Below are positions 2,733 to 50,624 of a stretch of 64,000 bases of DNA, piece by piece. This DNA is from an uncultured Acidobacteriota bacterium (GTDB lineage Bacteria > Acidobacteriota > Thermoanaerobaculia > Gp7-AA8): assembly GCA_963734155.1 (NCBI GenBank), contig CAVTGG010000004.1:323983-387982 (forward strand). The letters run 5' to 3'. Below the pieces are notes generated by a model that did not search any database, was not told where the DNA came from, and saw only the letters and a list, made by a program, of their open reading frames with translations. Made by a program: the position numbers and the translations under genes. The stretch's first letter is position 1; each line of letters starts with the position of its first letter.

Positions 2733-4022
2733 TCATGCGGCCCGCCGTCCTTGCAAGATCTTCACGAACGAGCGCGAGCGCAGCTCGTCGAGCGTGAGTC
2801 CCGTCGCCAGCGCTTCGTCTTCCGTCAGCGCGCCGCTGTTGATGCCGCGGATGAAGTAGTTGAGCAGGCCCTGGCCTGTCGCCGCGTCGTCGAAGACGTC
2901 GCCGACCAGCGTCGCCTGCCCCGCCTTCTGCATGAAATTGCGCAGCCGTTCGGTGGCGGCGGCGAGTCCTTCGAGGAAGAAGGAGTAGATCGCGGCGTAG
3001 CGCGTCGGCAGTTGCGCGGGATGGAGATCCCAACCTTGATAGTAGGCGTGCACGAGCGAGTGGCGGATGTGATCGACGTGCAGCTTCCAGGCGCGATGAA
3101 TCGTGTCGCGGTCGCCGATCGGCAGGATGTTCGTCGCGCCGTCGGAGAGCCAGATGCCGGTGCCGGCGTACGCGATCTGCATCATGTGCCGCGCGAAGTC
3201 GCAGGACGGATGGTCCATGCGCTGTTCGTTCGCGGTGATGTTGCAGCTGGCGGTGTAGTCGTACGTGCCGAAATGCGCGGCGACGGCGCGGCCGCGCGCG
3301 GCGTCGAGGAAGCGCGGCAGGTTCGACTCGCCGCGCTCGCTGAGGATCGACTGCGTCGTCTCGATCATGAACTCGAGCCGCAGCGTGTTCGCGGCGAGGC
3401 CGAGCTTCGGCTCGAGCGACTCGAAGATGTCGACGAGCAGCGTGACCTGCTCCGGCAGTTGAATCTTCGGCAGCGTGATGACGAAGCCGGATGGCAGCTT
3501 GCCGTTTGTTTCGCCGAGGAGCGTGGTGAGGAAGATGTCGAACGTGCGGATACCGCGGCGCATCAGCTCCGAGGAGAACGGCTTGATGCGGATGCCGATG
3601 AACGGCGGCAGCGTGCCTTCGCGCAGACCCGTCGCGACCTCGCGCGCGCATCGCGCGGCGTCGCGGTCTTCTTCGTCGTCAGGCCGATTGCCGTAGCCAT
3701 CCTCGAAGTCGATGCGAAAGTCTTCGACCGGCTCGCGCCCGAGCTTCTCCACCACGCGCGACCAGATCGTTTCCGCGTGCGCGTCGGCGACGCCGATCGC
3801 GCGCGCGAACGTGAACGGATCGATGCCGTGCTCGTCGAGGATGCTCCTCCCCTTCTCGCCGAGCTTGCGCGTCGTGTCGGACTTGAACAGCTGCGCGCCG
3901 CCGTACACCGTGTGCACCGGCTGGCGCTCGCCGGCGTTGCCGGGGAAGCGGCGCATGAACGGCACGAGTGCGTCCTGCAGCGGTTTGGAGAGCTTGTCGA
4001 TTTCGTTTTCGCTGAGCGTCAT
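2733..4022 (-). CDS. Malate synthase/CitE(HpcH)-like TIM-barrel family protein (possible glyoxylate-processing enzyme of the purine pathway)
   Basis: 429 aa. FRIDFEDGYG resembles the DFED(S) active-site region of malate synthase/CitE. Start overlaps the puuD-like stop (ATGA). Located in the allantoin/glyoxylate context. Confidence 0.35.
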   Translation of the reverse strand: MTLSENEIDKLSKPLQDALVPFMRRFPGNAGERQPVHTVYGGAQLFKSDTTRKLGEKGRSILDEHGIDPFTFARAIGVADAHAETIWSRVVEKLGREPVEDFRIDFEDGYGNRPDDEEDRDAARCAREVATGLREGTLPPFIGIRIKPFSSELMRRGIRTFDIFLTTLLGETNGKLPSGFVITLPKIQLPEQVTLLVDIFESLEPKLGLAANTLRLEFMIETTQSILSERGESNLPRFLDAARGRAVAAHFGTYDYTASCNITANEQRMDHPSCDFARHMMQIAYAGTGIWLSDGATNILPIGDRDTIHRAWKLHVDHIRHSLVHAYYQGWDLHPAQLPTRYAAIYSFFLEGLAAATERLRNFMQKAGQATLVGDVFDDAATGQGLLNYFIRGINSGALTEDEALATGLTLDELRSRSFVKILQGRRAA

Positions 4023-4024
4023 CA

Positions 4025-4789
4025 ATGCTTCCGAATCACGTGCGCGATCGCCCATCCCACGAGGATGAACACCGCCAGCATCTTCCAGTCATACCCGCGC
4101 ATGGCGATCGGGAAGTGCCCGTTCATCATGATGAGCACGACCGGCCACACGATGTACGTGTTGTGTTTCGAGCGGAACTTGGCGCGGTCGGCGAGGCGCG
4201 GATCGGGCTCGCGCCCTTCGCGTACGGCCGCGACCATTTTTTTCTGCGCGGGGATGATGCGCTCCCAGACGTTCGCGGCCATCGCCGTTCCCATGAGCGC
4301 GCCGATGTGCATGTAGGACGCGCGCGGGCTCATCACGTGCGGCAGCCACCACGCCAGCCCCACCAGCGCGGCGTACGAGATGACGATCAGCAGCGGCTCC
4401 GGCAGCGGCGAGAGCCACAGCAGGTCATACAGTTTCCAGCCGACGAAGATGAGCCCGATGCCCCAGATCGCGGCAGTCGTGAAGTTCTGCTCCGAGACCA
4501 GCAATCCGCCGAAGTAGTAGACGAGGATCAGCAGCAGCAATCCGCTGATCCACGTGATCGCCGCCTCCCACTTGAACCAATGCAGCGTGTGCTCGGACGA
4601 CGGCTTCTTCGTTTTGTTGACGACGTAGAACCCGCCGCTGTGAACCATCCACACCTGATCGGGATCGGTGGTGTGGAAGCGGCGGTCGAGCCAGGTGAAG
4701 TAGTACGTCGCGCCGACCCACATGATGCCGGCGAAGACATGCACCCAGCGGAAGGCGAGGTTGAGCCACTCCTGTACGACGTAATTCAT
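4025..4789 (-). CDS. puuD: PuuD-like urate hydroxylase membrane domain protein (COG3748-type) lacking the C-terminal cytochrome c domain
   Basis: About 255 aa polytopic membrane protein (WVHVFAGIMWVGATYYF...), downstream of xdhB. Similar to the N-terminal membrane domain of cytochrome-c urate oxidase PuuD. Confidence 0.5.
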
Positions 4790-4795
4790 AAGCTT

Positions 4796-4870
4796 GAACG
4801 CAGAGCGCAAAGAACGTAGAAACTAGAAAATTCTCAATTCTACGTGCTGCGTTCTGCGTTTCTACTGTTG
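4796..4870. repeat. Repeat family 2: palindromic (GAACGCA)n hairpin, intercistronic between xdhB and puuD
   Basis: gaacgcagagcgcaaagaacgtagaa...ttctacgtgctgcgttctgcgtttc. Related copies at 54666-54766 and 56779-56869. Confidence 0.8.
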
Positions 4871-7087
4871 TTGCCTTCGCGAGTACTCCGTCAGTCGCGA
4901 AAGGATCTCCTCGTTCGTCGCCGGCAACCGCAGCCGCGCGATGTCTCCGTTCGCGACGGATTGCAGCGCGTTCTTCACCGCGCACCAGATCGAGATCGCC
5001 ATCAGCAGCGGCGGCTCGCCGACGGCTTTGCTGCCGCGGACGTTGATGGGATTGTCGACGTCGATCCAATCGACGTTGAAGACTTCGGGGACGTCGTTGA
5101 TGTTCGGGATCTTGTACGTCGTCGGCGAGTGCGAGAGCAGCACGCCTTTGTCGTCGTACCGCAGCTCCTCGGTGGTGACCCAGCCCATTCCCTGAACGAA
5201 CGCGCCGATGAGCTGGCCGCGGTCGATGCCGGGATTGATCGGCTTGCCGATGTCCATCAGCACGTCGCTGCGCAGCACTTTCAAATCGCCCGTGAACCGG
5301 TCGATCAGCACTTCGGAACACGCCACGCCCATCGTGAAGTAGAGGAACGGCGTGCCGCGGCCGCTGGTCCAGTCCCAGTCGAGGCGCGGCGTGGCGTAGA
5401 ACCCGCGCTCGCCGAGGGAGACGCGCTCGTGATACGCGAGCTTCACCAGCATCTCCCACGAATCCTGCTTGCCGAGGTGCGCCTCGAGCTCGTCGAGGCG
5501 GAAGCGGATCTTGCGCGCCGCATCGACCGCCGCGCTGCCGTTGAGATCCGCCGCGCTCGAGGCCGCGCTCGCCGACGTGTTGTTGTTCTTCTCCGTCGAC
5601 GTGATCATCACGCTCACGCGCTCGACCGGGATGCGCAGCTCATCGGCGACGAGCTGCCCGATCTTCGTGTTCACGCCCTGCCCCATCTCCGTCGCGCCGG
5701 TCGAGACCTGCACGCTGCCGTCGAGGTAGATGTTCACGAGCGCGTTCGCCTGATTGAGAAACTTCGTGTTGAAGGAGATGCCGAACTTCACCGCGGAAAT
5801 CGAGATGCCTTTGAGCTGCGTCTGTGACGTCGCGTTGAACGCGCGCACCGCTTCGACGCGCGCGCGGTAGTCGCAGCGCTCGGGCAGCTCGGTGAAGAGC
5901 CGAGGCAGCGTGTTGTTCGGAACCACCTCTTCATACGGCGTGGTGTTGCGCGTCTCGACGCCGTAGCAGTTCACGCGGCGCACATCGAGCGCGTCTTTCT
6001 TCAGGAACGCGGCGATCTCTTCGATGATGTTCTCCATCGTCGCCACGCCTTGCGGTCCGCCGAAGCCGCGGAACGCGGTGTTCGGAGGCATGTTCGTGCG
6101 GCAAACCGTGCCGCGGATGTCGATGTTCGCGATGTAGTACGCGTTCTCCGCGTGGGTCATGGCGCGGGCCATGACCGCCGGCGAGAGATCGGCGTACGCG
6201 CCGCCGTCGGAGTAGAAGTCGATCTTCATCCCGACGATCTCGCCGCTGCGCGTGAATCCGACGCGATAGCGGTTCTGAAACGCGTGACGCTTTCCCGTCA
6301 CGTGCATGTCGGTGTCTTTGTCGTAGACGATGCGCGTGGGCCGCTTCGTTTTCTGCGACACGAGCGCAGCCATCGCCGCGGGATGCGTGGCCTGCGCTTC
6401 CTTGCCGCCGAACGCGCCGCCCATCCGCTTGGTCGTGACCACGACCTGATTCATCTGCAGTCCCAGCAGATGCGCGATGACTTCCTGCACCTCGGTCGGA
6501 TGTTGCGTCGAGGACAGCACGTGCATCGCGCCGTTTTCGCCCGGCTGGATGATCGCTGCTTGCGATTCGAGATAGAAGTGATCCTGGCCGAGGTTGCGGA
6601 ACACGCCTTCGAGGACATGCTCGGCGGAGGCGAGCGCAGCGTCGGCATCGCCGCGGCGGATGTAGCGCGTCTCGCCGATGAAGCTCTGCGCGGCGATGGC
6701 GTCGTCGATCTCGAAGATCGGCGTGAGCTCCTCGAATTCGATTTTGACGGCGCGCTTCGCCGCGTCGACCGCTTCGCGCGTTTCCGCGGCGACGACGACG
6801 ATCGGCTGGCCGCGGAACGTGCAGTGGCCGTCGTCGACGAGGAGCGGCTCGTCGGCGATGATCGGACCGAGGCGGTTGTGATGCAGGTCTTCGTGCGTGT
6901 AGACGTGCGCGAGCTTCTTCGCTTCGCTCACATCGAGCGAGACGATGCGCGCGTGGGCGTAGGGCGACCAGACGAAGTCGACGACGAGCTCGCCATGCAG
7001 CGGCGGCAGGTCATCGACATACATCGACTCGCCGGTCACGTGACCGCGCGCGGAATCGTGCGGGATGTCCTTGCCGACGGAGGGCAT
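4862..7087 (-). CDS. xdhB: Xanthine dehydrogenase molybdopterin-binding (large) subunit
   Basis: 741 aa from MPSVGKDIPHDSARGHVTGE. Shows the aldehyde-oxidase/xanthine-dehydrogenase MoCo domain pattern. The ORF-track extension upstream of this Met is GC-rich read-through. Confidence 0.9.
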   Translation of the reverse strand: MPSVGKDIPHDSARGHVTGESMYVDDLPPLHGELVVDFVWSPYAHARIVSLDVSEAKKLAHVYTHEDLHHNRLGPIIADEPLLVDDGHCTFRGQPIVVVAAETREAVDAAKRAVKIEFEELTPIFEIDDAIAAQSFIGETRYIRRGDADAALASAEHVLEGVFRNLGQDHFYLESQAAIIQPGENGAMHVLSSTQHPTEVQEVIAHLLGLQMNQVVVTTKRMGGAFGGKEAQATHPAAMAALVSQKTKRPTRIVYDKDTDMHVTGKRHAFQNRYRVGFTRSGEIVGMKIDFYSDGGAYADLSPAVMARAMTHAENAYYIANIDIRGTVCRTNMPPNTAFRGFGGPQGVATMENIIEEIAAFLKKDALDVRRVNCYGVETRNTTPYEEVVPNNTLPRLFTELPERCDYRARVEAVRAFNATSQTQLKGISISAVKFGISFNTKFLNQANALVNIYLDGSVQVSTGATEMGQGVNTKIGQLVADELRIPVERVSVMITSTEKNNNTSASAASSAADLNGSAAVDAARKIRFRLDELEAHLGKQDSWEMLVKLAYHERVSLGERGFYATPRLDWDWTSGRGTPFLYFTMGVACSEVLIDRFTGDLKVLRSDVLMDIGKPINPGIDRGQLIGAFVQGMGWVTTEELRYDDKGVLLSHSPTTYKIPNINDVPEVFNVDWIDVDNPINVRGSKAVGEPPLLMAISIWCAVKNALQSVANGDIARLRLPATNEEILSRLTEYSRRQQQ

Positions 7088-7119
7088 GGCGAAGAGCGTG
7101 ATTGTACGATGATCTCGAA

Positions 7120-7142
7120 CCCGTGCCCGTGCCCGCACGGGA
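7120..7142. repeat. Repeat family 1: short (GCCCGT)n hairpin in the divergent xdhB / sigma-factor promoter region
   Basis: cccgtgcccgtgcccgcacggg. Confidence 0.6.
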
Positions 7143-7169
7143 GTGTGTCGCGAATGATTTGTTCTCGGG

Positions 7170-7742
7170 GTGCCGTCTAACCGGGCAATGGACGAACGAT
7201 TTCTGGTCCAGCGGATGGTGCGCGGCGATGAGGGGGCGTTCGAGGAGTTCTTCAACGCCAACTTCGGGCCGCTGTTCCGGTTCGCGCTGCCGCGCGTCGG
7301 CGGGGACGCCGACGTGGCCGAGGAAGTGGTGCAGCTGGCGCTGTGCCGCACGGTGCGGAAGCTGGCGACGTATCGCGGCGAGGCGTCGCTGCTGACCTGG
7401 CTCTGCACGATCTGCCGCCACGAGATTCACGACTGGTTCGAGAAACAAAGGAGGGTTCCGCCGATGGTCGAACTGGTGGAGGATCTGCCGGAGGTGCGCG
7501 CGGCGCTCGATTCGCTGGACGCGGTGCAGAAGAAAGAGACCGCGCGGCTCGTGCAGGTCGTGCTCGACCGGCTGCCGAACCGCTACGGCGACGCGCTGGA
7601 GTGGAAATACATCGAAGGGCTTTCGGTCGCGGAGATCGGCGAACGCCTGGGCGTGGCGACGAAGGCCGCGGAGTCGCTGCTGGCGCGCGCGCGGGTGGCA
7701 TTCCGCGACGCGTTCCAAGCGGTGCAGGGAGTGCAGGCATGA
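7170..7742 (+). CDS. ECF (sigma-70 family, group IV) RNA polymerase sigma factor, FecI-like
   Basis: Region 2 (FEEFFNANFGPLFRFAL...AEEVVQLAL) and region 4 HTH (LSVAEIGERLGVATKAAESLLARAR). Followed by FecR and a TonB-dependent receptor. Confidence 0.85.
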   Translation: MPSNRAMDERFLVQRMVRGDEGAFEEFFNANFGPLFRFALPRVGGDADVAEEVVQLALCRTVRKLATYRGEASLLTWLCTICRHEIHDWFEKQRRVPPMVELVEDLPEVRAALDSLDAVQKKETARLVQVVLDRLPNRYGDALEWKYIEGLSVAEIGERLGVATKAAESLLARARVAFRDAFQAVQGVQA

Positions 7743-8737
7743 AAGAAGACAACGAAGATCAGATCGCGGAGCTGCTGCGGCTCGCCGGCCCGCGTCCGCG
7801 GATCAGCGACGAGCGGACGGCGCGCGTGCGCGCGGCGGTGCGTGACGAGTGGAAGCGCAACGTGCGCAAACGAACGGGCGTGACGTGGCTGGCGATCGCG
7901 GCCGCCGCGGTGATTGCGATGATTCTGTTCGTGCCGCGCGCGAACAAGACGCCTGCTCCCGTGCCGGCGGTCGTCGTGGCAGAGGTGCAGGCGATCCGCG
8001 GCAACACGATTCCCGCGCTGCACGCGAGCGCTACCGTCGTTGCATCGACGAAGATCGAAACGCTCACCGGCAGCACGCTCTCGCTCGATTGGAACGGCGC
8101 GACGCTGCGCCTCGGCGAAGGGACGCGCGTGCAACTCGATGCGCAGACGGCCTCGCTCGAACGCGGAACAATTTATTTCGACAACGGCGGCGGGACGCCG
8201 CCGGGCCAGCCGGCGAGGACGCCGGCGTTCCCAGGTCGGAACGCCGCCGTCTCGGCGGCTGGTCAGGCGGCGTCCCGCCGCCTCGGCATTGCGATCAACA
8301 CTCCTTTCGGCGAGATCCGCGACATCGGAACGCAATTCGAAGTCCGCCTCGATGAACATTCGTTGCGCGTACGCGTGCGCGAAGGGCGCATCGATCTGCG
8401 TCGCGGCAATCAGGTTGAAGTCGCAGAGGCAGCGACCGAGTTGATTGCGGATCAAACGTCCGTGCACAAGAACGCGATCGCAATCAGCGGCGCGGAGTGG
8501 AAGTGGATCGAAGACGCCGCGCCGCCGCTGCGGCTCGAAGGGCTCACGCTGCGCGAGGCGGTCACGCGCGTCGCACGCGAAAAGGGCTTGCGCGTCGAGC
8601 TGCAGGGCGTCGACGGCAATGTGAAGCTGCACGGCAGCGTGGAGTTCACGCCGGATGAAGCGCTCGAGGCCGCGACTGCCGCGACGTCGGCCTCCTATCA
8701 GATCAGGAACGACACGCTCATCGTGAGAAAACACTGA
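7739..8737 (+). CDS. FecR-family anti-sigma factor / transmembrane sensor
   Basis: ATG overlaps the sigma stop (ATGA). N-terminal anti-sigma segment, one TM helix (WLAIAAAAVIAMILFV) and a periplasmic FecR domain (ATLRLGEGTRVQLDAQTASLERGTIYFD). Confidence 0.8.
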   Translation: MKEDNEDQIAELLRLAGPRPRISDERTARVRAAVRDEWKRNVRKRTGVTWLAIAAAAVIAMILFVPRANKTPAPVPAVVVAEVQAIRGNTIPALHASATVVASTKIETLTGSTLSLDWNGATLRLGEGTRVQLDAQTASLERGTIYFDNGGGTPPGQPARTPAFPGRNAAVSAAGQAASRRLGIAINTPFGEIRDIGTQFEVRLDEHSLRVRVREGRIDLRRGNQVEVAEAATELIADQTSVHKNAIAISGAEWKWIEDAAPPLRLEGLTLREAVTRVAREKGLRVELQGVDGNVKLHGSVEFTPDEALEAATAATSASYQIRNDTLIVRKH

Positions 8738-10978
8738 ATGATCCTCCTCATCCTCATGCTGTACGCGGGTCACCCGCTCGTCGAGGCGCTGCGCGATCTC
8801 GAATCGAAGGGGCTCCGCCTCGTGTACAGCGACGACGTCGTGACGCGCGAGATGGTCGTGAAGAGCGAGCCGCGCGCGACCGAACCGCGGCGCGTGCTCG
8901 ACGAGCTGCTGCGCGAGCACGGGCTCACCACGACGCCGGGGCCGCGCGGAACGCTGCTGATCGTCAAAGCGAAAATCGAGGAAGCGGCGCCGGCGCCACA
9001 GTTCCCCATGCCGAAGACGCTCGCGGAGATCGTGGTGACGCCGAGCCGTTTCGAGCTTCTCGGTGAGGAGCCCGAGCAGCGGCAGTTTCTGAGTCGCGAA
9101 GAAGTCCGCCGCGTGCCGCACATCTCCGACGATTTCTATCGCGCGATCCGCCGCATCCCCGGCGCGGCGTCGGACGATCTCACGGCGCGCTTCAACATCC
9201 GCGGCGGCGAAGAAGACGAGGCCGTGATCCTCCTCGACGGCGCGGAGATCTACGACCCGTTTCACGTGAAGGACATCGTGCGCGCGTTCTCGATCATCGA
9301 CACCGAGGCCATCGGGTCGGTCGACATCCTGACGGGCGGGTTCCCGGCGGAGTACGGCGGGCGGATGAGCGGCGTGATCGACATCGCTTCGCTCGCGCCG
9401 TCGGAGACGAAGACCGAGATCGGCGCGAGTCTGCTCAACCTGCACGGGCTGTCGCAGGGAACGCTGGCGGACGGGCGCGGGCAGTGGCTGCTGTCGATCC
9501 GCCGCGGATATCTGCACGAACTGCTGGAGCTGGTCGACTCGACGAACGACGTCGATCCGCGTTACTACGATCTCCTCGCCAAGCTGCAATGGACGCTCGG
9601 CGCGAAGAACGTTCTCTCCGCGCACGTCCTGGCCTCGCGCGACGTGCTGCGCGTCGAGGAGTCGAGCAACGACGACGTGAAGGCGACGTATCGCGATACG
9701 TACGCGTGGCTGAATCTGCGCAGCACTCCGCGCGACGGGCTGCTCCTGCAGAACGTGCTGCAGTACGGCACGTCCGGACGCGACCGGCACGGCGTGTACG
9801 AAGACAACGCGCAGTTCGGAAACGTGAAGGACGTCCGCGACTTCGACTTCGCGGGCCTGAGGAGCGACGCCTCGTACAACGTCTCGGCGCGGAATCTGAT
9901 CAAGGGCGGCGTCACGATCCGGCGTGCGAAGGCGCGTTACGACTACGACGGCGAAGCGCTGATCGCAGGGACGCTGCTCGAGCTCGGCGCGCCGCCGCGA
10001 CGCATCAGCAATCACGCGCACACCAGCATCACGTCGACCGAGGTCGCCGTGTATGCGTCGGATCGATTCAAGGCCGGCGAGCGCGTGATCGTCGAGACGG
10101 GCGCGCGGTGGGAGACGGAGAGCCACACGCCCGACGGCGGGCATTTCTCGCCACGTATCAACGCCGCCTGGATGGTCTCGCCGGCCACGACGGTGCGCGC
10201 GGCGTGGGGACATTTCTATCAGCCGCAGGGCGTGTATGAGCTGCAGGTGGAAGACGGCGTCACGAATTTCTTCCCCGCCCAACGCGCGGAGCATCGCGTG
10301 ATCGGCGTCGATCAGCAGTTCGGACGGGCGCTCACCGCGCGCGTGGAGTTGTACGACAAAGTCTTCACCGATCCGCGGCCGCGCTTCGAGAATCTGTTCG
10401 ATCGCATCGTCGTGTTTCCGGAGCTGCGCGACGACCGCACGCGCGTCGCGCCGGAGCGCTCGACCGCGCGCGGCGCCGAGGTGCTGCTGCGCCACGACTC
10501 GCAGGGCGCGCTCAGCGGCTGGATCCACTTCACGCGCGCGACGGTGACGGATGAAATCGGAGGCCGCCGCGTGCCCCGCGCGTGGGATCAGCGGAACGCG
10601 GCGACGTTCTGCGTCAACTACAAGATCGGCGCGTCGTGGAACTTCAACGTCGCCGCGACGTGGCACAGCGGCTGGCCGTCGACGCCGCTGCTCGTTTCGG
10701 CAACGGGCGCGCAGCTGCAGAGCGAGCTCGGTCCGCTGCGCTCGGAGCGGCTGCCCGCGTACCGCCGCGTCGACGTCCGCGCGTCACGCCGCGTCGCCAC
10801 GGCCGGCGGGACGTTCACGTTTTTTGTCGATGTCTTCAACGCGCTCAACCAGTCGAACGCGAGCAGCGTGAACGGCTTCCTCGTCGAGCAGCAAAGCGAC
10901 GGCACGTTCTCGACGAAGCGAATCGAAGACCCGGTGGTCGGCGTCGTTCCGTCGTTCGGCATTTCCTGGCAGTTCTGA
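8738..10978 (+). CDS. TonB-dependent receptor with N-terminal STN (signalling) domain, FecA-like transducer
   Basis: STN domain (LVEALRDLESKGLRLVYSDD...), plug domain, 22-strand barrel region and C-terminal ...GISWQF. Start directly abuts the FecR stop. Confidence 0.8.
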   Translation: MILLILMLYAGHPLVEALRDLESKGLRLVYSDDVVTREMVVKSEPRATEPRRVLDELLREHGLTTTPGPRGTLLIVKAKIEEAAPAPQFPMPKTLAEIVVTPSRFELLGEEPEQRQFLSREEVRRVPHISDDFYRAIRRIPGAASDDLTARFNIRGGEEDEAVILLDGAEIYDPFHVKDIVRAFSIIDTEAIGSVDILTGGFPAEYGGRMSGVIDIASLAPSETKTEIGASLLNLHGLSQGTLADGRGQWLLSIRRGYLHELLELVDSTNDVDPRYYDLLAKLQWTLGAKNVLSAHVLASRDVLRVEESSNDDVKATYRDTYAWLNLRSTPRDGLLLQNVLQYGTSGRDRHGVYEDNAQFGNVKDVRDFDFAGLRSDASYNVSARNLIKGGVTIRRAKARYDYDGEALIAGTLLELGAPPRRISNHAHTSITSTEVAVYASDRFKAGERVIVETGARWETESHTPDGGHFSPRINAAWMVSPATTVRAAWGHFYQPQGVYELQVEDGVTNFFPAQRAEHRVIGVDQQFGRALTARVELYDKVFTDPRPRFENLFDRIVVFPELRDDRTRVAPERSTARGAEVLLRHDSQGALSGWIHFTRATVTDEIGGRRVPRAWDQRNAATFCVNYKIGASWNFNVAATWHSGWPSTPLLVSATGAQLQSELGPLRSERLPAYRRVDVRASRRVATAGGTFTFFVDVFNALNQSNASSVNGFLVEQQSDGTFSTKRIEDPVVGVVPSFGISWQF

Positions 10979-10990
10979 TCGGAGAGTCCT

Positions 10991-12223
10991 ATGCGCAAAG
11001 CGATTCTGTTTCTCACGGTGATGCTGTTCACGTTCGCGGCGGCGAAACGCCGCTCGGCCACGTCTCCCGGGCAAGTGACGTACAACAAGGAAGTGGTGCG
11101 CATCCTCCAGGAGCATTGCCAGAGCTGCCACCGGCCGGGCGACATCGGGCCGTTCTCGCTGATGACGTATCGCGACGCGGCGGCGATGGCGCCGCAGATC
11201 AAGCTGATGACGAAGCTGCGCAAGATGCCGCCGTGGAAGCCGGCCGAGCACGTCGGCGACTTCGTCGGCGCGCGGCGACTCACGCAGCAACAGATCGACA
11301 CGCTCGCGCAGTGGGCCGACGCCGGCGCGCCGGAAGGGCGGCCGGAAGATCTGCCGCCCGCGCCGGAGCCGAAAGGCGACTGGATCCTCGGCGCGCCCGA
11401 CATGATCCTCGGCATGCAGAAGGACTTCACTCCGCCCGCGAATCGCGACGAGTACCGCTGCTTCTCGATTCCGGTGCCGGCGAACGACGACTTGTGGATC
11501 TCGACGATCGACTTCCGTCCCGGCGACCGCGCGACCGTGCATCACATCGTGCAGTATCTCGATCCCACCGGCGCGAGCGCGCAGCTCGACCGGGATGGCA
11601 GCGGCTTCACCTGCTTCGGCGGGCCGCTCGTCGACGACGCCGACGTTCTCGGCGCGTGGTCGCCGGGCGGACGTCCGACGCCGCTGCCCGACGGAACGGC
11701 CATCCGCCTGCCGAAAGGCGCGCGCGTGCTGATGCAGGTGCACTATCACCCGCACTTCGGCAAAGTCGGCGTGGACCGCACCGAGATCGGCCTCTACTTC
11801 GCGAAGTCGGAAGTGAAGAAGGTGATGCGCTACGACGCGGTTCTGAACACGCGACTCTTCATCCCCGCCGGCGCGGCGAATCAGCGCATCGAGGCGACGG
11901 CGACGCTCGGCGCCGACATTGAGATGGTGTCGATCTACCCACACATGCATCTTCTCGGCAAGAGCATCCGCGCCGACGCGATCCTCCCCGACGGCACGGT
12001 CCTGCACCTGATCGACATCCCGCAGTACGAGTTTCAGTGGCAGGGACAGTACGTCTACAAAGCTCCCGTCAAGCTGCCGAAGGGCACGCGGCTGCTCATC
12101 GAGAGCTTCTACGACAACTCGACGAACAACCTGCAGAACCCGAACTCGCCGCCGAAGGACGTACGGTGGGGCGAGGCGAGCACGGATGAGATGTGCATCG
12201 CGCTGTTTGGGTACACGAGTTAG
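10991..12223 (+). CDS. Periplasmic cytochrome c domain fused to a PHM/DBH-like type-2 copper monooxygenase core (Cu2_monooxygen-like)
   Basis: Signal peptide, CQSCH heme-c motif, then CuH-site-like HH (VHHIVQY) + H (VHYHPHF) and CuM-site-like HxH (YPHMHLLGK) + Met (DEMCIAL), in the order and spacing of peptidylglycine alpha-hydroxylating monooxygenase. Confidence 0.6.
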   Translation: MRKAILFLTVMLFTFAAAKRRSATSPGQVTYNKEVVRILQEHCQSCHRPGDIGPFSLMTYRDAAAMAPQIKLMTKLRKMPPWKPAEHVGDFVGARRLTQQQIDTLAQWADAGAPEGRPEDLPPAPEPKGDWILGAPDMILGMQKDFTPPANRDEYRCFSIPVPANDDLWISTIDFRPGDRATVHHIVQYLDPTGASAQLDRDGSGFTCFGGPLVDDADVLGAWSPGGRPTPLPDGTAIRLPKGARVLMQVHYHPHFGKVGVDRTEIGLYFAKSEVKKVMRYDAVLNTRLFIPAGAANQRIEATATLGADIEMVSIYPHMHLLGKSIRADAILPDGTVLHLIDIPQYEFQWQGQYVYKAPVKLPKGTRLLIESFYDNSTNNLQNPNSPPKDVRWGEASTDEMCIALFGYTS

Positions 12224-12229
12224 GAAACA

Positions 12230-12358
12230 CCCCTCATCCGGCCTTCGGCCACCTTCTCCCCGCAAGCGGGGAGAAGGGCTCTCGCGGCACCTCTCGTCGA
12301 GTGCCCCTCTCCCCGCTTGCGGGGAGAGGGTGGCGCGAAGCGCCGGGTGAGGGGCCGT
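12230..12358. repeat. Composite inverted repeat of two ~50-nt inverted copies, each with an internal CTCCCCGC-N4-GCGGGGAG hairpin, between convergent genes; probable bidirectional terminator / REP-like element
   Basis: acccctcatccggccttcggccaccttctccccgcaagcggggagaagggc ... gcccctctccccgcttgcggggagagggtggcgcgaagcgccgggtgaggggc. Confidence 0.7.
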
Positions 12359-12360
12359 GC

Positions 12361-13755
12361 CTACACGACGTCGTAGTAGAACCGCTGCAACACGTTCTCC
12401 GCGAGCTGCAAACGGAAGTCGCGCGATCCGCGGACGTCGCTGATCGGCGCGACTTCTCCGCGGGCGATCTCGCCTGCCTCGGCGAACGTTTCGCGGGCGA
12501 GCGTTTTGCCGGCGAGGAACTGCTCGGTCTTCGGCAGGCGCAAAACGACCGGCGCAACGCCGCCGTACGCGATGCGGATCGAGTCGACGCGGCCGTCATT
12601 GCGGCGCATCAGCATCGCGGCAGTGAACGACGAAATATCGAGATGGCTGCGCTTCGAGATCTTGTAGAGGCGCAGCGTCTCGCTCTTCGACGGGAGCGGG
12701 ATGACGATGCGGGTGATGATCTCGTCGGGCTTGAGGTCGAGCGTCTTGTAGCCGAGGTAGAAATCGGAGATGGCGACGGTGCGGGTGCCGGAGAGGCCGG
12801 TCAATTCGAGCGATGCGTTCGTGACGAACAGGAACGGGAGCGTGTCGGCGATCGGCGAGGCGTTGGCGATGTTGCCGGCGAGCGTGCCGGCGTTCTTGAT
12901 CTGCGGCGAGCCGAAGCGATCCATGATCGGCGCGAGCTCGGGGATGAGCTCGCGCACCGCGACTTCGAAGTCGGCCAGCGACGCGCGTCCGCCGACGACG
13001 AGCGCGCCGTCGACCTGGCGAATGTCGCCGAATCCTTCCACTGCATCGAGCGAAAGCATCGCCTCGGCGACGAAGCCGCGCTTGTTGCACCAGACGCCGA
13101 AGTCGGTCGCGCCCTGCACGATCACGCACTTTGCATGTTCGGATTTGAACCGGATCGCGCTTTCGAGGTCGGTGGCTTTGAAGAAATTCTCGATGCGCAC
13201 TTCATCGCGCTCGTGTTGTTGGATCGCTTCAACGATCGGCGCGGACGGATAGAGCTGCGCGATCTTCGGCTGCTCTGTCGCTTCGAGTGCGGCTTTGATG
13301 ATCGACGTGTAGCCGGTGCAGCGGCAGAGATTTCCGGTGAGCGCGGCGCGGACGTCGTTCTCGGTCGGATGCGACGTGCATTCGTACATGCCGGCCATGG
13401 CCATGATGAAGCCGGGCGTGCAGTAGCCGCACTGCGCGCCGTGGCAGCGCACCATCGCGTCCTGCACCGGCGTCAGCTCGCCGCCGCGCGCGAGTCCTTC
13501 GACCGTGACGATGTGCGTGCAGTCGAGCTGAAAGAGAAATTGGATGCAGGAGTTGATCGGGCGGTAGGACAGCGCGCCGTTCTCGCGACGCCCCACGAGC
13601 ACCGTGCACGCGCCGCAGTCCCCTTCTTCACAAACGATCTTCGTGCCGGTCTCGCGCTGGTCGTAGCGGAGAAATCGCGAGAGCGTCTGAAACGCCTGCG
13701 GCGCCGCGATGCGATGCGGGACGCCGTTGATGTGGACGAGGAGATGGTCGCGCAC
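12361..13755 (-). CDS. xdhA: Xanthine dehydrogenase small subunit (2Fe-2S ferredoxin + FAD-binding domains)
   Basis: CEEGDCGACTV, CHGAQCGYCTPGF and CRCTGY iron-sulfur motifs, then an FAD-binding PCMH domain. Confidence 0.9.
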   Translation of the reverse strand: MRDHLLVHINGVPHRIAAPQAFQTLSRFLRYDQRETGTKIVCEEGDCGACTVLVGRRENGALSYRPINSCIQFLFQLDCTHIVTVEGLARGGELTPVQDAMVRCHGAQCGYCTPGFIMAMAGMYECTSHPTENDVRAALTGNLCRCTGYTSIIKAALEATEQPKIAQLYPSAPIVEAIQQHERDEVRIENFFKATDLESAIRFKSEHAKCVIVQGATDFGVWCNKRGFVAEAMLSLDAVEGFGDIRQVDGALVVGGRASLADFEVAVRELIPELAPIMDRFGSPQIKNAGTLAGNIANASPIADTLPFLFVTNASLELTGLSGTRTVAISDFYLGYKTLDLKPDEIITRIVIPLPSKSETLRLYKISKRSHLDISSFTAAMLMRRNDGRVDSIRIAYGGVAPVVLRLPKTEQFLAGKTLARETFAEAGEIARGEVAPISDVRGSRDFRLQLAENVLQRFYYDVV

Positions 13756-15352: not shown

Positions 15353-15832
15353 TTACAAGCTGCGCTTCTTGCCGCGGATGTTGCGTCGGCTGCCTTTGGC
15401 CTTGCCGCCGCCACCACCGTAGCCGCCACCGCCGCCGTAATCGCCGCCGCCACCGCCGCCGCTGTAGTCGCCACCACCGCCGCCATAACCACCGCCGCCG
15501 CCGTAGCCACCACCACCGCCGCCGTAGCCGCCGCCACCGCCGCCGCCGTAACCTCCGCGGCCACCGCCGCCGCCAGCGCCGCGAGGACGATCCTCGGCCT
15601 GGTTCACGCGCAGCGCACGTCCACTGAGCTCGTATCCATTGAATTTCTCAATCGCTTTCGCGGCGTCTTCATCCGACGTGAACTCGACGAACGCGAACCC
15701 TCTCGGCCGGCCGCTCTCGCGATCGGTTGGCAAAAACACGTCGCGGATCTCGCCGATCTGCGAGAAAAGCGTCTGCACTTCAGCACGGGTCGTGTTGAAG
15801 TCCAGATTGCCGACAAACACCTTCGATGCCAT
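15353..15832 (-). CDS. RRM-domain RNA-binding protein with Gly/Tyr-rich C-terminal tail
   Basis: RNP-2 (KVFVGNL) and RNP-1 (RGFAFVEF) motifs, then a (GGYGGGG)n tail. Confidence 0.85.
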   Translation of the reverse strand: MASKVFVGNLDFNTTRAEVQTLFSQIGEIRDVFLPTDRESGRPRGFAFVEFTSDEDAAKAIEKFNGYELSGRALRVNQAEDRPRGAGGGGGRGGYGGGGGGGYGGGGGGYGGGGGYGGGGGDYSGGGGGGDYGGGGGYGGGGGKAKGSRRNIRGKKRSL

Positions 15833-15965: not shown

Positions 15966-19144
<3,179 letters not shown>

Positions 19145-19150
19145 GGTCAC

Positions 19151-19270
19151 CGCTCGATCCCGCGCCCGTGCCCGTGCCCGTGCCCGAGCCCGAACGGCAA
19201 AGCCAAGCATGTGGCGCGGGCTGCGCTTCGCGTTTCGGGCACGGGCACGGGCACGGGCGCGGGCACGGGT
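19151..19270. repeat. Repeat family 1: long palindromic hairpin built from (GCCCGT)n / (ACGGGC)n hexamer runs, intercistronic between glgE and treS
   Basis: cccgcgcccgtgcccgtgcccgtgcccgagcccg...cgggcacgggcacgggcacgggcgcgggcacggg. Confidence 0.8.
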
Positions 19271-21238
19271 TTACAGGAAGTATTCAAAGTCTCTCTCCGT
19301 CCGCACCCGTCTTCGAATGCGGAAGATGTACGCCGGAATCACGTGCGGATTCAGCGTCAGCGTGTTTTTTCCGGAATGCCAGGTGAAGCGCGTGCCACTC
19401 AAAAGATCGTGGACCTGGAACGGCTTGCCCGCCTCGAGCTCGAGCGCGTCGTAGTTGAGATTCACGTCCGCGCTCTGCGTGTTGTGCGGATCGAGGTTCA
19501 CGACGCAGACGATCGCGTTCGTTCCCGCGGTCTTGCTGTAGCAGAGGATCTGATCGCTCGATGTTTCGTGAAACGTCAGCGTCGCGTTCTGCTGCAGCGC
19601 GGGATTCTCGCGGCGGATGCGATTGACGAGGGCGATCAGCTCGCTGAGGTCCTCTTCGCCCGCGGGCCAGTGACGCACTTCGTACTTTTCGGAGTCGAGG
19701 TACTCCTCGCTCCCCTGCTCGCGCGCGACGTGCACGAAGCGCTCGAACGCCGGCCCGTAGATCCCGTAGTTCGCGGAGAGCGTGGCCGCGAGGATGAGGC
19801 GCATCGTGAACGCGGGACGTCCGCCGTGCTGCAGAAACTCCGGGAGGATGTCGGGCGTATTCGGCCACGCGTTCGGGCGGAAGAAGTCGCTCACCGGCGG
19901 CTTCGCGATCGCTTCGAAATACTCCGTCAGCTCTTCTTTCGTGTTGCGCCACGCAAAGTACGTGTACGACTGATTGAAGCCGCCCTTCGCCAGCCGGTAC
20001 ATGATCTTCGGCCGCGTGAACGCCTCGGCGAGAAAGATGAGATCGGGCCACTCGCGCTTCAGCTCGCGAATGCACCACTCCCAGAACGGCAGCGGCTTCG
20101 TGTGCGGGTTGTCGACGCGGAAGACGCGCACACCCTTGTCCGCCCAGAACGCGAACACGTCGCGCAACTCGTTCCACAGCTCGCGCCACGCGTCGCTCTC
20201 GAAGTGGAACGGATAAATGTCCTGATACTTTTTCGGCGGATTCTCCGCGTACTGAATCGTGCCGTCGGGCCGCGCGAGAAACCAGTCGGGATGTTCTTTG
20301 ACGTACGGATGATCGGGCGAGGCCTGAAACGCGATGTCCATCGCGATCTCGAGCCCGTGATTTTTCGCGACGGCAACAATGTTCTGAAAGTCGTCGAGGT
20401 TGCCGAGATCGGGATGGACGCTTTTGTGCCCGCCCTCCGCTCCGCCGATGGCCCACGGACTGCCGACGTCGCCGGCCTCCGCCGCGACCTTGTTGTTCTT
20501 CCCTTTGCGGAAATGGACGCCGATCGGATGAATCGGCGGGAAGTAGAGGATGTCGAATCCCATCTTCGCGATGCGCGGCAGTTCGGCTTCAACGTCTTTG
20601 AACGTGCCGATCGAGCGGGGAAACATCTCGTACCACGCGCTGAACGCCGCGCGCGGACGATCGACTTCGATCAGCAGCTCGCGCTCGTAGCGCGTGACGA
20701 ACTTCCGCTCGCCGTTCCGCCACATCAGCGCGAGCAAGTCTTCGCCGCGAAGGTCTTCGACTTTTTCCGCGACGGACGCGTCGCTTTCGATCGTGGCGAG
20801 ATAGCCTTCGAGCTTGCGCCGATCGCGCACGCCTGCGCGCGCCGCCGCTTCGCGAATGTACTGCGCGGCGATGAGCAGTTGCACGCGCAGGTCTTCCTCG
20901 GACGTGCGCTTCTCCAGATCGCGGCGCCAGGTGAGGAAGTGATCGATCCACGCTTCGAACGTGAATCGATGGAAGCCTAAATGCTCGACCGTGATCTCGG
21001 CGCGCCAGCGGTCGTTCGGCAGCGGGCGCATCCGCACTTCGGCCCATTTCTTCTCGCCTTCGTCGTGGCGATGCAGCGCGACGGCGGAGATGAGGTCGTG
21101 GCCGTCGGCGAAGATGTCGGCTTCGACCGCGACCACGTCGCCGGTCACGCGCTTGGCCGGAAACGCCCCGGCATCGACTTCCGGGGATGCGCCTTCGATG
21201 ATGACGCGATGCCGTCCATCCAACTCCGCTCGAACCAC
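19271..21238 (-). CDS. glgE: Alpha-1,4-glucan:maltose-1-phosphate maltosyltransferase
   Basis: 655 aa GH13 protein. N-terminal GlgE-specific domain (EGASPEVDAGAFPAKRVTGDVVAVEADIFADGHD), catalytic region FRVDNPHTKP. Adjacent to treS-mak. Confidence 0.85.
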   Translation of the reverse strand: MVRAELDGRHRVIIEGASPEVDAGAFPAKRVTGDVVAVEADIFADGHDLISAVALHRHDEGEKKWAEVRMRPLPNDRWRAEITVEHLGFHRFTFEAWIDHFLTWRRDLEKRTSEEDLRVQLLIAAQYIREAAARAGVRDRRKLEGYLATIESDASVAEKVEDLRGEDLLALMWRNGERKFVTRYERELLIEVDRPRAAFSAWYEMFPRSIGTFKDVEAELPRIAKMGFDILYFPPIHPIGVHFRKGKNNKVAAEAGDVGSPWAIGGAEGGHKSVHPDLGNLDDFQNIVAVAKNHGLEIAMDIAFQASPDHPYVKEHPDWFLARPDGTIQYAENPPKKYQDIYPFHFESDAWRELWNELRDVFAFWADKGVRVFRVDNPHTKPLPFWEWCIRELKREWPDLIFLAEAFTRPKIMYRLAKGGFNQSYTYFAWRNTKEELTEYFEAIAKPPVSDFFRPNAWPNTPDILPEFLQHGGRPAFTMRLILAATLSANYGIYGPAFERFVHVAREQGSEEYLDSEKYEVRHWPAGEEDLSELIALVNRIRRENPALQQNATLTFHETSSDQILCYSKTAGTNAIVCVVNLDPHNTQSADVNLNYDALELEAGKPFQVHDLLSGTRFTWHSGKNTLTLNPHVIPAYIFRIRRRVRTERDFEYFL

Positions 21239-38625: not shown

Positions 38626-39816
38626 CTATTGCGGTTTTTCGCCGACGTACCGCGCGCGCGGCCGGATCATCGCATCCTGCGCGTACTGCTCGATGGCGTG
38701 CGCGATCCAGCCGATGGTGCGGCCGAGGGCGAAGAGCGCGAGCGCGCTGCCGGGCGGGAGGCCGATGACGCGCGAGAGCGCGACGAGCGCAAAGTCGACG
38801 GTCGGCTTCTCGCCGAGGACGCGCTGCGCCGCGGCGGCGAACGCGTGCGCGAACGCGAGCTCCTTCGATTTCGGAAAGCTCTCGTCCAGCAGCTCGAGCA
38901 GCAGCGCCGCGCGCGGATCGCCTTTCGGATAGAGCGGATGGCCGAAGCCTTCGATGCGCTCGCCGCGGCGGAGGCGATCGGCAAGTGATTTGGCGAGATC
39001 GCGCGCGCGGCGGAGATCGTCGAACAGCACCTCGACGCGCGCCGTCGCGCCGCCGTGCTTCGAGCCTTCGAGCGCCGCGAGCCCGCCGAGGACCGCGGCA
39101 TACGGATTCGCGCAGGACGATGCGATGCAGCGCGCGGTGAACGCGGAGACGTTCAGCTCATGGTCGGCGATCAGAATCAGCGCCGCGCGGATCAGCGCCG
39201 GCGCGCGCTTCACCTTCGGCGCCCACGCCTGCGCGAGCGTGTCGTCGATCGTCGGCGCGAGCTCGCGCGTCGATGCGGCGACGCTGGTCAGCAGGTTGAG
39301 AATCCGCCAGCCGGTTTGCGCGACGGCGCGCGGGCGGAGGTCGAACGCGAGCGGATCGCGCGCGGCGACGATCGGCAGAATCGATTGCGCGCGGTTGATG
39401 AACGGCAGGTCATTCGTCGCCGCGCCTCCGACGACATGCAGCGGCGTATCGAACAGCGTGTCGTCGAACGCGCCGGTCCAGATCAGCGAGGCCGCCTCTT
39501 CGATCGAGTGCTCGCGCGCGAGCGTGGCGACGTCGTGGCCGCGGTAGTACAGCTTGCCGTCGGTGATGAGCGTGATCGACGACTCGAGGATCGGAACGCC
39601 CCAGCGCAGCGCATTCTCCGCGGCTTTCTCCGGATTCCGCCGCTCCTCCGCGCGCTTGCGCAGCCGCTCCACGTCCTCCCGCGCATACCGCTTCAGCCTC
39701 GGCTTCCCGGGCACGGCCTCGGAGCGGAGGAAGCCGCGGCTGACGTACGCGTACAGCGTGGCCCGGCTCACGCCGAGGAGCCTCGTAGCCTGGTTCGCAT
39801 CGATCCATGCAGCCAT
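38626..39816 (-). CDS. Citrate-synthase-like protein with N-terminal excisionase/MerR-type HTH
   Basis: MAAWIDANQATRLLGVSRATLYAYVSRGFL HTH, then a citrate synthase fold (GFGHPLYPKGDPRA; HGGATARV). 396 aa from Met85 of the listed ORF. Confidence 0.7.
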   Translation of the reverse strand: MAAWIDANQATRLLGVSRATLYAYVSRGFLRSEAVPGKPRLKRYAREDVERLRKRAEERRNPEKAAENALRWGVPILESSITLITDGKLYYRGHDVATLAREHSIEEAASLIWTGAFDDTLFDTPLHVVGGAATNDLPFINRAQSILPIVAARDPLAFDLRPRAVAQTGWRILNLLTSVAASTRELAPTIDDTLAQAWAPKVKRAPALIRAALILIADHELNVSAFTARCIASSCANPYAAVLGGLAALEGSKHGGATARVEVLFDDLRRARDLAKSLADRLRRGERIEGFGHPLYPKGDPRAALLLELLDESFPKSKELAFAHAFAAAAQRVLGEKPTVDFALVALSRVIGLPPGSALALFALGRTIGWIAHAIEQYAQDAMIRPRARYVGEKPQ

Positions 39817-39820
39817 TAGG

Positions 39821-39854
39821 TTGATTATAGAATCAATATTGACATCAATGTCAA
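39821..39854. promoter_or_regulatory. Two palindromes in the 51-bp divergent intergenic region: TTGATTATAGAATCAA and perfect TTGACATCAATGTCAA (candidate operator)
   Basis: ttgattatagaatcaatattgacatcaatgtcaa sits between the HTH-citrate-synthase-like gene and the divergent citrate-synthase-like gene. Confidence 0.55.
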
Positions 39855-39867
39855 CCACCCCTACGTT

Positions 39868-50622: not shown

Positions 50623-50624
50623 GG

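Follow-up and report, generated by a model that had tools for sequence, protein, structure and literature searches.

A candidate two-copper monooxygenase of the PHM/DBH type, fused to a cytochrome c domain, closes a four-gene receptor operon in Acidobacteriota

Peptidylglycine alpha-hydroxylating monooxygenase (PHM), dopamine beta-monooxygenase (DBH) and tyramine beta-monooxygenase, which belong to the copper type II ascorbate-dependent monooxygenases (Pfam PF01082 and PF03712), are the textbook examples of enzymes whose two copper sites are uncoupled; in animals, enzymes of this type produce amidated hormones and noradrenaline. It is still debated how electrons cross the copper-copper gap of ~11 A and in what way reduction and substrate binding are coupled, and work on both points has been confined almost entirely to the animal enzymes, whose reductant is diffusible. 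DBH, tyramine beta-monooxygenase and MOXD1 (PDB 4zel) begin with a DOMON domain, which in DBH carries no covalent heme. Heme domains that serve copper sites are known from other enzymes: cytochrome c-fused copper nitrite reductases have one as a built-in one-electron donor, and the cytochrome domain of cellobiose dehydrogenase feeds lytic polysaccharide monooxygenases, the same concept of heme-to-copper transfer in a secreted or periplasmic setting. The copper domains of these heme-tethered enzymes have unrelated folds and different chemistry, and their likeness to the protein described here is a functional analogy only.

The genetic setting of that protein also has described counterparts. In the FecIRA, FoxIRA and FpvIRA systems, an ECF sigma factor, a FecR-type anti-sigma factor and a TonB-dependent receptor are encoded in this order and are tightly coupled; to our knowledge, a PHM-type monooxygenase has not been described before in such cell-surface signalling operons. 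An analogue of a receptor-coupled heme/copper system is MbnIRT, whose receptor is likewise accompanied by a periplasmic heme protein and copper protein, the MbnP/MbnH pair. In the window (the whole stretch of 64,000 nucleotides, from an uncultured Acidobacteriota bacterium, that was analysed), the FecIRA order recurs with a PHM-type monooxygenase as its fourth gene:

7170..7742, + strand: FecI-like ECF sigma factor, with which the cassette opens (Pfam Sigma70_r2, Sigma70_r4_2, Sigma70_ECF)
7739..8737, + strand: FecR-like anti-sigma factor of 332 aa, counted from the ATG at 7739 (Pfam FecR, 31.5 bits)
8738..10978, + strand: TonB-dependent receptor (Pfam Plug, TonB_dep_Rec_b-barrel)
10980..10985, + strand: Shine-Dalgarno sequence GGAGAG of the monooxygenase gene, 5 nt before its ATG (sequence reading)
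10991..12223, + strand: gene for the putative PHM/DBH-like copper monooxygenase with its fused heme c domain (410 codons and a stop)
12252-12277 and 12305-12330, no strand: two similar GC-rich palindromes (sequence reading)

The four genes are separated by -4, 0 and +12 nt, and the gaps are similar at other loci. We consider the best explanation of the last gene to be a periplasmic O2-dependent hydroxylase that is fed by its own heme c and encoded in a receptor-coupled operon, a reading that we favour with modest confidence. The open reading frame is exactly the one that the sequence-only reading had proposed as a secreted protein of 410 aa; its N-terminus (MRKAILFLTVMLFTFAAA followed by KRR) resembles by eye a Sec signal peptide, and the AlphaFold2 (AF2) model places there a helix of low pLDDT (aa 2-17), the putative signal peptide. 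The motifs CQSCH, VHHIVQY, HYHPH, YPHMHLLGK and DEMC, on which that reading was built, are all present where it had placed them, and the protein can be laid out as follows:

10991..11044, + strand: putative Sec-type signal peptide, aa 1-18 (sequence reading)
11078..11365, + strand: predicted cytochrome c domain, ~aa 30-125
11117..11131, + strand: CQSCH heme c attachment motif, aa 43-47 (C43, C46, H47)
11225..11227, + strand: Met79 in M-P-P-W, likely sixth heme ligand
11387..11800, + strand: N-terminal beta-sandwich of the copper core, ~aa 133-270 (hhalign pairing), also carrying Q249 and the C157-C208 pair
11540-11545, + strand: predicted CuH ligands H184/H185, in VHHIVQY
11741-11743, + strand: predicted CuH ligand H251, in QVHYHPH, beside H253 and H255
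11801..12220, + strand: C-terminal beta-sandwich of the copper core, aa 271-410 (Pfam Cu2_monoox_C, hhalign)
11942-11944 and 11948-11950, + strand: predicted CuM ligands H318 and H320, in YPHMHLLGK
12191-12193, + strand: predicted CuM ligand M401, in TDEMC

Two of three Pfam domain scores of this enzyme fall under the gathering cut-offs: Cu2_monoox_C is above (26.7 bits, cut-off 23), and Cu2_monooxygen (21.3, cut-off 30) and Cytochrome_CBB3 (19.9, cut-off 27) are below; the remaining Pfam match is a weak one to Haem_bd. The single sequence nonetheless retrieves rat PHM from the PDB (phmmer, E 5e-9), and a family profile retrieves PHM across both domains (4e-15) and DBH (7e-8). Comparison with 21 animal PHMs by hhalign gave a probability of 98.6% (E 6e-16, 261 columns) and paired all six copper ligands: at CuH, H184/H185 with PHM H107/H108 and H251 with H172; at CuM, H318, H320 and M401 with H242, H244 and M314. 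PHM Q170, C81, C126 and C315 are paired in the same comparison, Q170 with Q249 and C81/C126 with C157/C208. The CuH pairings recur in the phmmer and family-profile alignments, and those of H318 and H320 in the family-profile alignment; the equivalence of M401 and M314 was obtained by the profile-profile comparison with the animal PHMs. Searched against the PDB by itself, the C-terminal domain has no match as a single sequence, and as a 23-sequence profile it finds only DBH (E 0.59), in an alignment that stops short of the Met. The earlier assignment of the His and Met residues to the CuH and CuM sites is therefore borne out by profile comparison at all six positions. For the HYHPH motif it applies to H251; H253 and H255, the other two histidines of the motif, are extra residues that have no counterpart among the PHM ligands and are less conserved across the wider family.

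The predicted fold points the same way. The AF2 model (pLDDT 89.4, pTM 0.82) has scores that suggest domains packed in a fixed arrangement, and two beta-sandwich domains with the PHM fold lie one after the other in it; Foldseek matches it to PHM and DBH at E ~1e-14 to 1e-15, and the next matches are unrelated jelly-roll capsids. Taken with the ligand mapping, this supports the reading of the protein as a PHM/DBH-like core with two predicted copper sites.

The protein departs from its animal relatives in several respects. Unlike PHM, which is the core of PAM (PDB 1phm, 1opm, 1sdw), it is bacterial, predicted to be periplasmic, and fused at its N-terminus to a cytochrome c; it has no lyase (PAL) domain, and ascorbate is presumably not its reductant. 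Where DBH and its relatives have a DOMON domain it has the CxxCH cytochrome c, and no Pfam match to DOMON was found in it. The residues with which PHM anchors its peptide are replaced (in the hhalign alignment, R240 by Y316, N316 by I403 and Y318 by L405). Because these peptide-binding residues are not kept, the enzyme is not a PHM orthologue, and its substrate should therefore not be a glycine-extended peptide bound in the manner of PHM. At position 316, distant representatives of the family have T, A, L, M, F or Y; the residue is Tyr in 100% of the receptor-coupled clade to which the window enzyme belongs, against Ala outside this clade, a pattern that fits a substrate particular to this clade.

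Ten residues (C43, C46, H47, M79, H184, H185, H251, H318, H320 and M401) are invariant in 104 homologues of 47-94% identity. In a wider alignment of 155 rows, built on 148 representatives of 50%-identity clusters, each of them is kept in 145-150 rows (~95%), the rest being mostly gaps; by site, the counts are 148-150 for the CQSCH residues, 149 for Met79 and 147-150 for the CuM ligands. Among the same 148 distant representatives the disulfide cysteines drift while the cofactor ligands hold, and by this conservation the predicted heme and copper ligands are under strong selection. The family comprises 16,833 clusters at 50% identity (3,348 of them at E<=1e-30) and is found in Acidobacteriota, Planctomycetota, Armatimonadota, Rokubacteria, Verrucomicrobiota and Poribacteria; because it is large and spans many phyla, it probably represents a widespread oxidative reaction of soil and water bacteria. 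A literature search found no publication on this enzyme family, which does not prove it unpublished. A 2025 review of PHM (PMC12164859) is silent on bacterial PHM homologues, its single mention of bacteria being unrelated, and in the reclassification of ECF sigma factors (PMC7826278) neither "monooxygenase" nor "cytochrome c" occurs.

By homology, we infer that the protein is loaded with heme and copper and acts as a monooxygenase, the heme being its built-in electron donor. Three cofactors would then sit together in the periplasm, a class I c-type cytochrome being packed on a core of the PHM/DBH type, in which the two copper sites are uncoupled. The heme, attached through C43/C46 and axially ligated by H47 and probably M79, would, by analogy with the PHM/DBH cycle, draw single electrons from the periplasmic pool of respiratory cytochrome c, a supply that would replace the ascorbate or cytochrome b561 of eukaryotes, and would reduce CuH electron by electron; after two electrons, O2 bound at CuM would abstract a hydrogen atom and a substrate C-H bond would be hydroxylated. 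Since the window also encodes an Alternative Complex III-like cluster, SCO1 and a caa3 oxidase with a cytochrome c domain, the organism evidently respires O2 and matures c-type cytochromes. Electrons might also run the opposite way: the copper core would oxidise a periplasmic substrate and pass the electrons out through heme c to the respiratory chain, making the protein a copper dehydrogenase or oxidase, like the copper enzymes whose electrons go to a partner cytochrome c, and not an O2-inserting monooxygenase. We regard this direction of flow, and the dehydrogenase or oxidase it implies, as quite unlikely, for the complete His3 and His2Met sets of the O2-activating PHM/DBH sites are strongly conserved, PHM Q170, which is implicated in the electron-transfer path from CuH to CuM, is retained as Q249, and we know of no characterised member of the PHM/DBH fold that acts as a dehydrogenase.

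The four-gene cassette (ECF sigma factor, FecR anti-sigma factor, TonB-dependent receptor and, last, the monooxygenase) is found with enzyme relatives of 94%, 64%, 62%, 60%, 56% and 53% identity, in six neighbourhoods that are otherwise unrelated. In this clade of 53-94% identity the enzyme gene always closes the tight four-gene operon, an observation that is new here. In favour of this linkage, 19 receptor clusters have a longest contig of the same length as that of enzyme-clade clusters. The arrangement of sigma factor, FecR and receptor is kept at loci L001, L003, L008, L088, L089, L090, L091 and L092; at L090 and L092, two of the three receptor-side homologues sampled, no enzyme gene lies within 5 kb, and the enzyme is accordingly either dispensable for that receptor system or encoded elsewhere. 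Family members of 52% identity or less have neither a receptor beside the enzyme gene nor any other constant neighbour, so the link between receptor and substrate is limited to this clade.

The neighbours of the cassette in the window were the source of a further proposal. The sequence-only reading had named urate and 5-hydroxyisourate as candidate substrates, and in the window, as at L001, the cassette does lie between two xanthine dehydrogenase subunit genes, with genes for a PuuD-type urate oxidase N-domain, DUF6986 and allantoicase nearby. Only in the window and in this 94%-identical relative, however, is the cassette flanked by purine genes; at L003/L004, L008, L088, L089 and L091 they are absent although the four-gene cassette is kept. 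The purine genes are moreover on the strand opposite to the cassette, which resembles an insertion that split the xdh gene pair, and the enzyme is predicted to be exported, whereas the pathway is normally cytoplasmic. As the purine context is not conserved, the urate/5-hydroxyisourate proposal was rejected, and an action of the enzyme on these or related compounds is in our view highly improbable.

The anti-sigma factor of the cassette has one transmembrane segment, the hydrophobic stretch VTWLAIAAAAVIAMILFV, and an STN-like C-terminal subdomain (Pfam STN, 23.8 bits). The receptor carries an alpha/beta extension at its N-terminus (aa 11-78), which a disordered linker joins to the plug; the barrel follows and has a terminal Phe. 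In its AF2 model (pLDDT 75) the small alpha/beta domain has a pLDDT of ~80; the plug is preceded by ~85 extra residues, and Pfam STN does not match the extension of the window protein, reaching only E 0.076 in one homologue. The best Foldseek matches are full-length FoxA, FpvA and FecA, and the receptor is probably of the transducer type. Its family is narrow, with 227 relatives at E<=1e-20 in Thermoanaerobaculia and other Acidobacteriota, and no close characterised relative was found (far sub-threshold siderophore-receptor scores only with NCBIfam, and none in the PDB with phmmer).

A receptor of this kind invites the explanation that the cassette serves to acquire copper or another metal, the receptor importing a metal chelate from which the heme-copper protein binds or oxidatively releases the metal. 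The layout of sigma factor, FecR and receptor is the classic one of metallophore uptake, the best structural matches of the receptor are siderophore transducers, and methanobactin-type loci, in which MbnP/MbnH pairs stand beside TonB-dependent receptors and FecIR-like regulators, offer a likeness; a Cu/Zn superoxide dismutase gene lies near the cassette at L088 and L089, and the cassette includes no inner-membrane transporter, as would suit metal acquisition. The lack of such a transporter and of a periplasmic binding protein also counts against the hydroxylase reading. Yet the fold match says nothing of the ligand, because all TonB-dependent receptors share this fold, at ~13% identity, and no Pfam match links the enzyme to MbnP or to MbnH, a diheme peroxidase resembling MauG, so that the parallel is one of context only. 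We judge metal acquisition unlikely as a separate explanation, and it would overlap with the hydroxylase reading if the release step were itself a hydroxylation.

Under the hydroxylase reading, the place of the enzyme gene at the end of the four-gene operon suggests that the enzyme would be produced once the receptor detects its ligand at the surface of the cell. The enzyme would then hydroxylate this ligand, or a fragment of it, on its arrival in the periplasm; candidate ligands are a metallophore or another scarce organic molecule, and the imported ligand is probably the molecule on which the enzyme acts. We suggest, tentatively and as a possibility that we hold below even, that the cassette encodes a pathway of an undescribed kind that senses, imports and then hydroxylates its ligand, using respiratory electrons delivered through the heme c of the enzyme. 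If this is true, the enzyme would be the first in the PHM/DBH class that is bacterial, works without ascorbate and has its physiological setting defined, and it would open a way into a family with over 16,000 sequence clusters. The receptor-coupled clade would offer a practical route to the substrate, the prime candidate being whatever molecule switches on the ECF sigma factor via the receptor, and a soluble bacterial homologue with a covalent, spectroscopically visible heme would allow electron delivery to be triggered and followed directly.

Beyond the clade, the family varies in what is attached to the enzyme or encoded beside it. About 40% of distant relatives have a fused N-terminal AhpC/TSA redoxin domain, whose role the proposed mechanism does not account for, and at some loci a separate redoxin gene lies directly upstream of the enzyme gene. 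These redoxins, together with the NCBI annotation "peroxiredoxin" on one relative, would suit a role in reactive oxygen or thiol redox metabolism, in which heme and copper reduce O2 or peroxide in the periplasm. Such a role is improbable: the window enzyme, like its entire clade, lacks the redoxin domain; an operon induced by a receptor ligand would be an odd place for a general antioxidant, and a redoxin could equally supply reductant or scavenge H2O2 from uncoupled turnover. No universal neighbour of the family emerged among 601 clustered flanking ORFs at 87 loci; the neighbours found are limited to single clades, and comprise a hybrid histidine kinase (11 loci), a MacB-type ABC transporter (6-7), the separate redoxin (4) and planctomycete cytochrome/DUF1501 pairs (4 each).

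Downstream of the enzyme gene in the window, the two palindromes sit between its stop codon and the convergent xdh small-subunit gene. Scans of 6800-12500 for promoter and terminator consensus sequences gave no match; the terminator scan demands a T-run and leaves the palindromes unflagged. The palindromes could act as bidirectional terminators or represent REP-like elements.

The open reading frame at 10991-12223 (+), as claimed in the sequence-only reading, is real: it encodes 410 aa, is preceded by a ribosome-binding site (GGAGAG, 5 nt upstream of the ATG), starts 12 nt past the point where the gene before it stops, and has an N-terminus (MRKAILFLTVMLFTFAAA/KRR) that reads as a Sec signal peptide. 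Every motif listed in that reading was found in the enzyme:

aa 43-47: CQSCH, heme c motif
H184/H185: contained in VHHIVQY
H251, H253 and H255: contained in QVHYHPH
H318/H320: contained in YPHMHLLGK
M401: contained in TDEMC

These matches are non-chance. Across 104 aligned homologues (47-94% identity), ten residues show no variation at all (C43, C46, H47, M79, H184, H185, H251, H318, H320 and M401), and each is retained in 145-150 of the 155 aligned rows of a distant set, built on 148 representatives of 50%-identity clusters that are 37-60% identical to the enzyme. The equivalents of the PHM disulfide cysteines drift freely among those 148.

Pfam Cu2_monoox_C scores above its cut-off on the enzyme (26.7 bits, cut-off 23), and Cu2_monooxygen (21.3 bits, cut-off 30) and Cytochrome_CBB3 (19.9 bits, cut-off 27) score below theirs; at E<=0.01 the three models match 103, 99 and 95 of the 104 homologues, respectively. 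In searches of solved structures, the single sequence matched rat PHM (E 5e-9), and the family profile matched PHM over both domains (4e-15) and human DBH (7e-8). A profile of 21 aligned animal PHMs was compared with the enzyme-family profile by hhalign (probability 98.6%, E 6e-16, 261 columns), giving these pairs:

CuH site: H184/H185 with PHM H107/H108; H251 with PHM H172
CuM site: H318/H320 with PHM H242/H244; M401 with PHM M314
Other positions: Q249 with PHM Q170; C157 with C81; C208 with C126; C402 with C315

All six copper ligands thus map onto the two copper sites of PHM, the comparison on which the sequence-only reading had staked its proposal, and the outcome favours a PHM/DBH-like protein. 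AlphaFold2 models the protein with confidence (pLDDT 89.4, pTM 0.82), its domain packing included, and PHM and DBH are the sole strong neighbours of the model in Foldseek (E about 1e-14 to 1e-15), ahead of unrelated jelly-roll capsids. The enzyme is exported and has a conserved site for covalent heme c as well as a pair of PHM-type copper sites, and its architecture is almost certainly that of a heme c joined to a PHM-type two-copper core.

The PHM/DBH class is already known, and its domains are recognised by automatic annotation, although NCBIfam has no model for the enzyme. In the literature outside subscription journals we found no description of a bacterial monooxygenase of PHM/DBH type that carries its own cytochrome c domain, of such an enzyme encoded in fourth place in an operon for a cell-surface-signalling receptor, or of the enzyme family itself. 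The enzyme is not a PHM orthologue, since the residues by which PHM holds peptidyl-glycine are all replaced (R240 by Y316, N316 by I403 and Y318 by L405 in hhalign), nor is it of DBH/TBM type, since a Pfam scan found no DOMON domain in it.

The enzyme gene is the last of a four-gene cassette (7170-12223, +) flanked by purine genes:

4022-4810 (-): protein of only 262 aa with a PuuD-type urate oxidase N-terminal domain; Urate_ox_N is its sole Pfam match
4862 to about 7100 (-): xanthine dehydrogenase large subunit
7170-7742 (+): ECF sigma factor
7739-8737 (+): FecR-type anti-sigma factor
8738-10978 (+): TonB-dependent receptor
10991-12223 (+): enzyme
12361-13755 (-): xanthine dehydrogenase small subunit

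The intergenic gaps within the cassette are -4, 0 and +12 nt, in gene order, and the enzyme gene is predicted to be co-transcribed with a ligand-sensing import system. With equal order and tightness, the cassette is kept around enzyme relatives in loci L001 and L002 (94% identity), L091 (64%), L003 and L004 (62%), L008 (60%), L088 (56%) and L089 (53%), among which the neighbourhoods otherwise differ; it is absent from L005-L007 and from 79 of 79 genome loci whose enzyme relatives are at most 52% identical. All related loci compared come from metagenome assemblies or metagenomic contigs, none from cultured isolates. The receptor-coupled enzymes differ from the remaining family at two positions, namely 316 (the position of the PHM substrate anchor R240), which is Tyr in the clade and Ala elsewhere, and 346, Tyr in the clade and Trp elsewhere; Tyr316 and Tyr346 are consistent with a clade-specific substrate.

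The receptor family is narrow (227 relatives at E<=1e-20, for the most part Thermoanaerobaculia), and the longest contigs of 19 receptor clusters equal in size those of enzyme-clade clusters. Of three receptor homologues sampled from the receptor side, two (L090 and L092) come with sigma factor and FecR genes and no enzyme gene within 5 kb; the receptor-enzyme link is therefore non-reciprocal, and the enzyme is an accessory of the receptor system, not an obligate part. FtsK follows the receptor in L092, and monooxygenase, Metallophos and PGAP1-like genes lie between the two in L091, which suggests that the enzyme gene has been gained or lost here. About 85 residues precede the receptor's plug, of which aa 11-78 fold in the AF2 model into a small alpha/beta domain, with a disordered linker after it, and in structure the receptor comes closest to the full-length signalling transducers FoxA, FpvA and FecA; because the Pfam STN model had no significant match to this extension, we grade the receptor a probable signalling transducer. 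In the window and L001 the receptor starts MILLILMLYAG (8738-8770), 10-17 residues short of the clear signal peptides of homologues in L003, L088 and L089 (e.g. MIARCFLILLLIASAAEA), and the upstream FecR frame extends right to this start; a lineage-specific indel or an unusual start codon may account for this.

The normally adjacent xanthine dehydrogenase genes (4862-13755 in the window) are split by the cassette both in the window and in L001 (94% identity), with the PuuD-type gene, DUF6986 and allantoicase nearby, and the cassette looks like a unit inserted into the pair. Urate, put forward as a candidate substrate in the sequence-only reading, fares poorly: apart from this proximity, the purine genes lie on the opposite strand and are missing from every cassette neighbourhood beyond the window and L001, so that a role in purine catabolism is highly improbable. 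The described membrane urate oxidase PuuD has an additional cytochrome c domain, which is seemingly absent from the 262-aa protein. The convergent gap holds two similar GC-rich palindromes, at 12252-12277 (CCTTCTCCCCGC..GCGGGGAGAAGG) and 12305-12330 (CCCTCTCCCCGC..GCGGGGAGAGGG), not flagged by a terminator scan, which may be REP-like elements or terminators lacking a T-run.

A respiratory cluster, which includes an Alternative Complex III (ACIII)-like set, occupies 48261-60290 (-):

48261-51596 (-): caa3-type oxidase (COX2 with cytochrome c domain, COX1, COX3)
51593-52357 (-): SCO1
54049-54783 (-): ACIII-like monoheme cytochrome c
55323-56345 (-): ACIII-like NrfD
56874-60290 (-): ACIII-like FeS subunit

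Given these genes, the organism respires oxygen and matures c-type cytochromes. We hypothesize that the heme is reduced by the cytochrome pool of the periplasm and in turn reduces CuH, and that O2 bound at CuM would serve to hydroxylate a C-H bond, as in PHM and DBH; in the receptor-coupled clade the substrate would be the molecule brought in by the adjoining receptor. Monooxygenase chemistry is probable, the heme is a rather likely electron entry point, and the receptor's ligand is a tentative candidate substrate; the composite of these with the architecture is modestly favoured. Electron flow in the reverse direction, with the enzyme acting as a dehydrogenase, seems quite unlikely. Metal-chelate acquisition or metal release, by analogy with MbnP/MbnH, overlaps our explanation in part and is doubtful.

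The wider family is large: an exhaustive HMMER search at E<=1e-3 gave 16,833 clusters (50% identity level), of which 3,348 reach E<=1e-30, and species-representative genomes hold at least 594 relatives, of which the best 80 loci by score, all in metagenome-assembled genomes, fall in Thermoanaerobaculia, Blastocatellia, Bryobacterales, Armatimonadota, Planctomycetota, Rokubacteria, Verrucomicrobiota and Poribacteria. Members are labelled 'mono/diheme cytochrome c family protein', 'ascorbate-dependent monooxygenase' or 'peroxiredoxin' in databases. Roughly 200 additional N-terminal residues occur in about 40% of distant representatives, an AhpC/TSA redoxin domain in every scanned case, and in other relatives the additional modules are C-terminal (TIG, TPR, FGE-sulfatase, G8 or EF-hand). 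The redoxin either forms the N-terminal part of a fusion with the cytochrome c-copper core or has its own gene just upstream (L062, 4826-5464, and relatives; wider-family proteins P0122, P0128, P0130, P0196 and P0206), which points to a recurrent functional partnership. Such fusions suggest periplasmic redox defence, which we consider improbable for the window enzyme; it has no redoxin partner of this kind.

Among other genes of the window, a citrate synthase frame at 38626-40068 (-) has an N-terminal HTH_17 DNA-binding match (aa 88-137), either an unusual fusion or an over-long call. Downstream of the enzyme locus, 15966-21238 (-) carries a trehalose synthase/maltokinase fusion gene and GlgE, of the alpha-glucan pathway with trehalose as its starting compound; these appear unrelated to the enzyme. 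A small RRM-type RNA-binding-like protein with a long Gly/Tyr-rich tail of GGYGGGGGG repeats is encoded at 15353-15832 (-).
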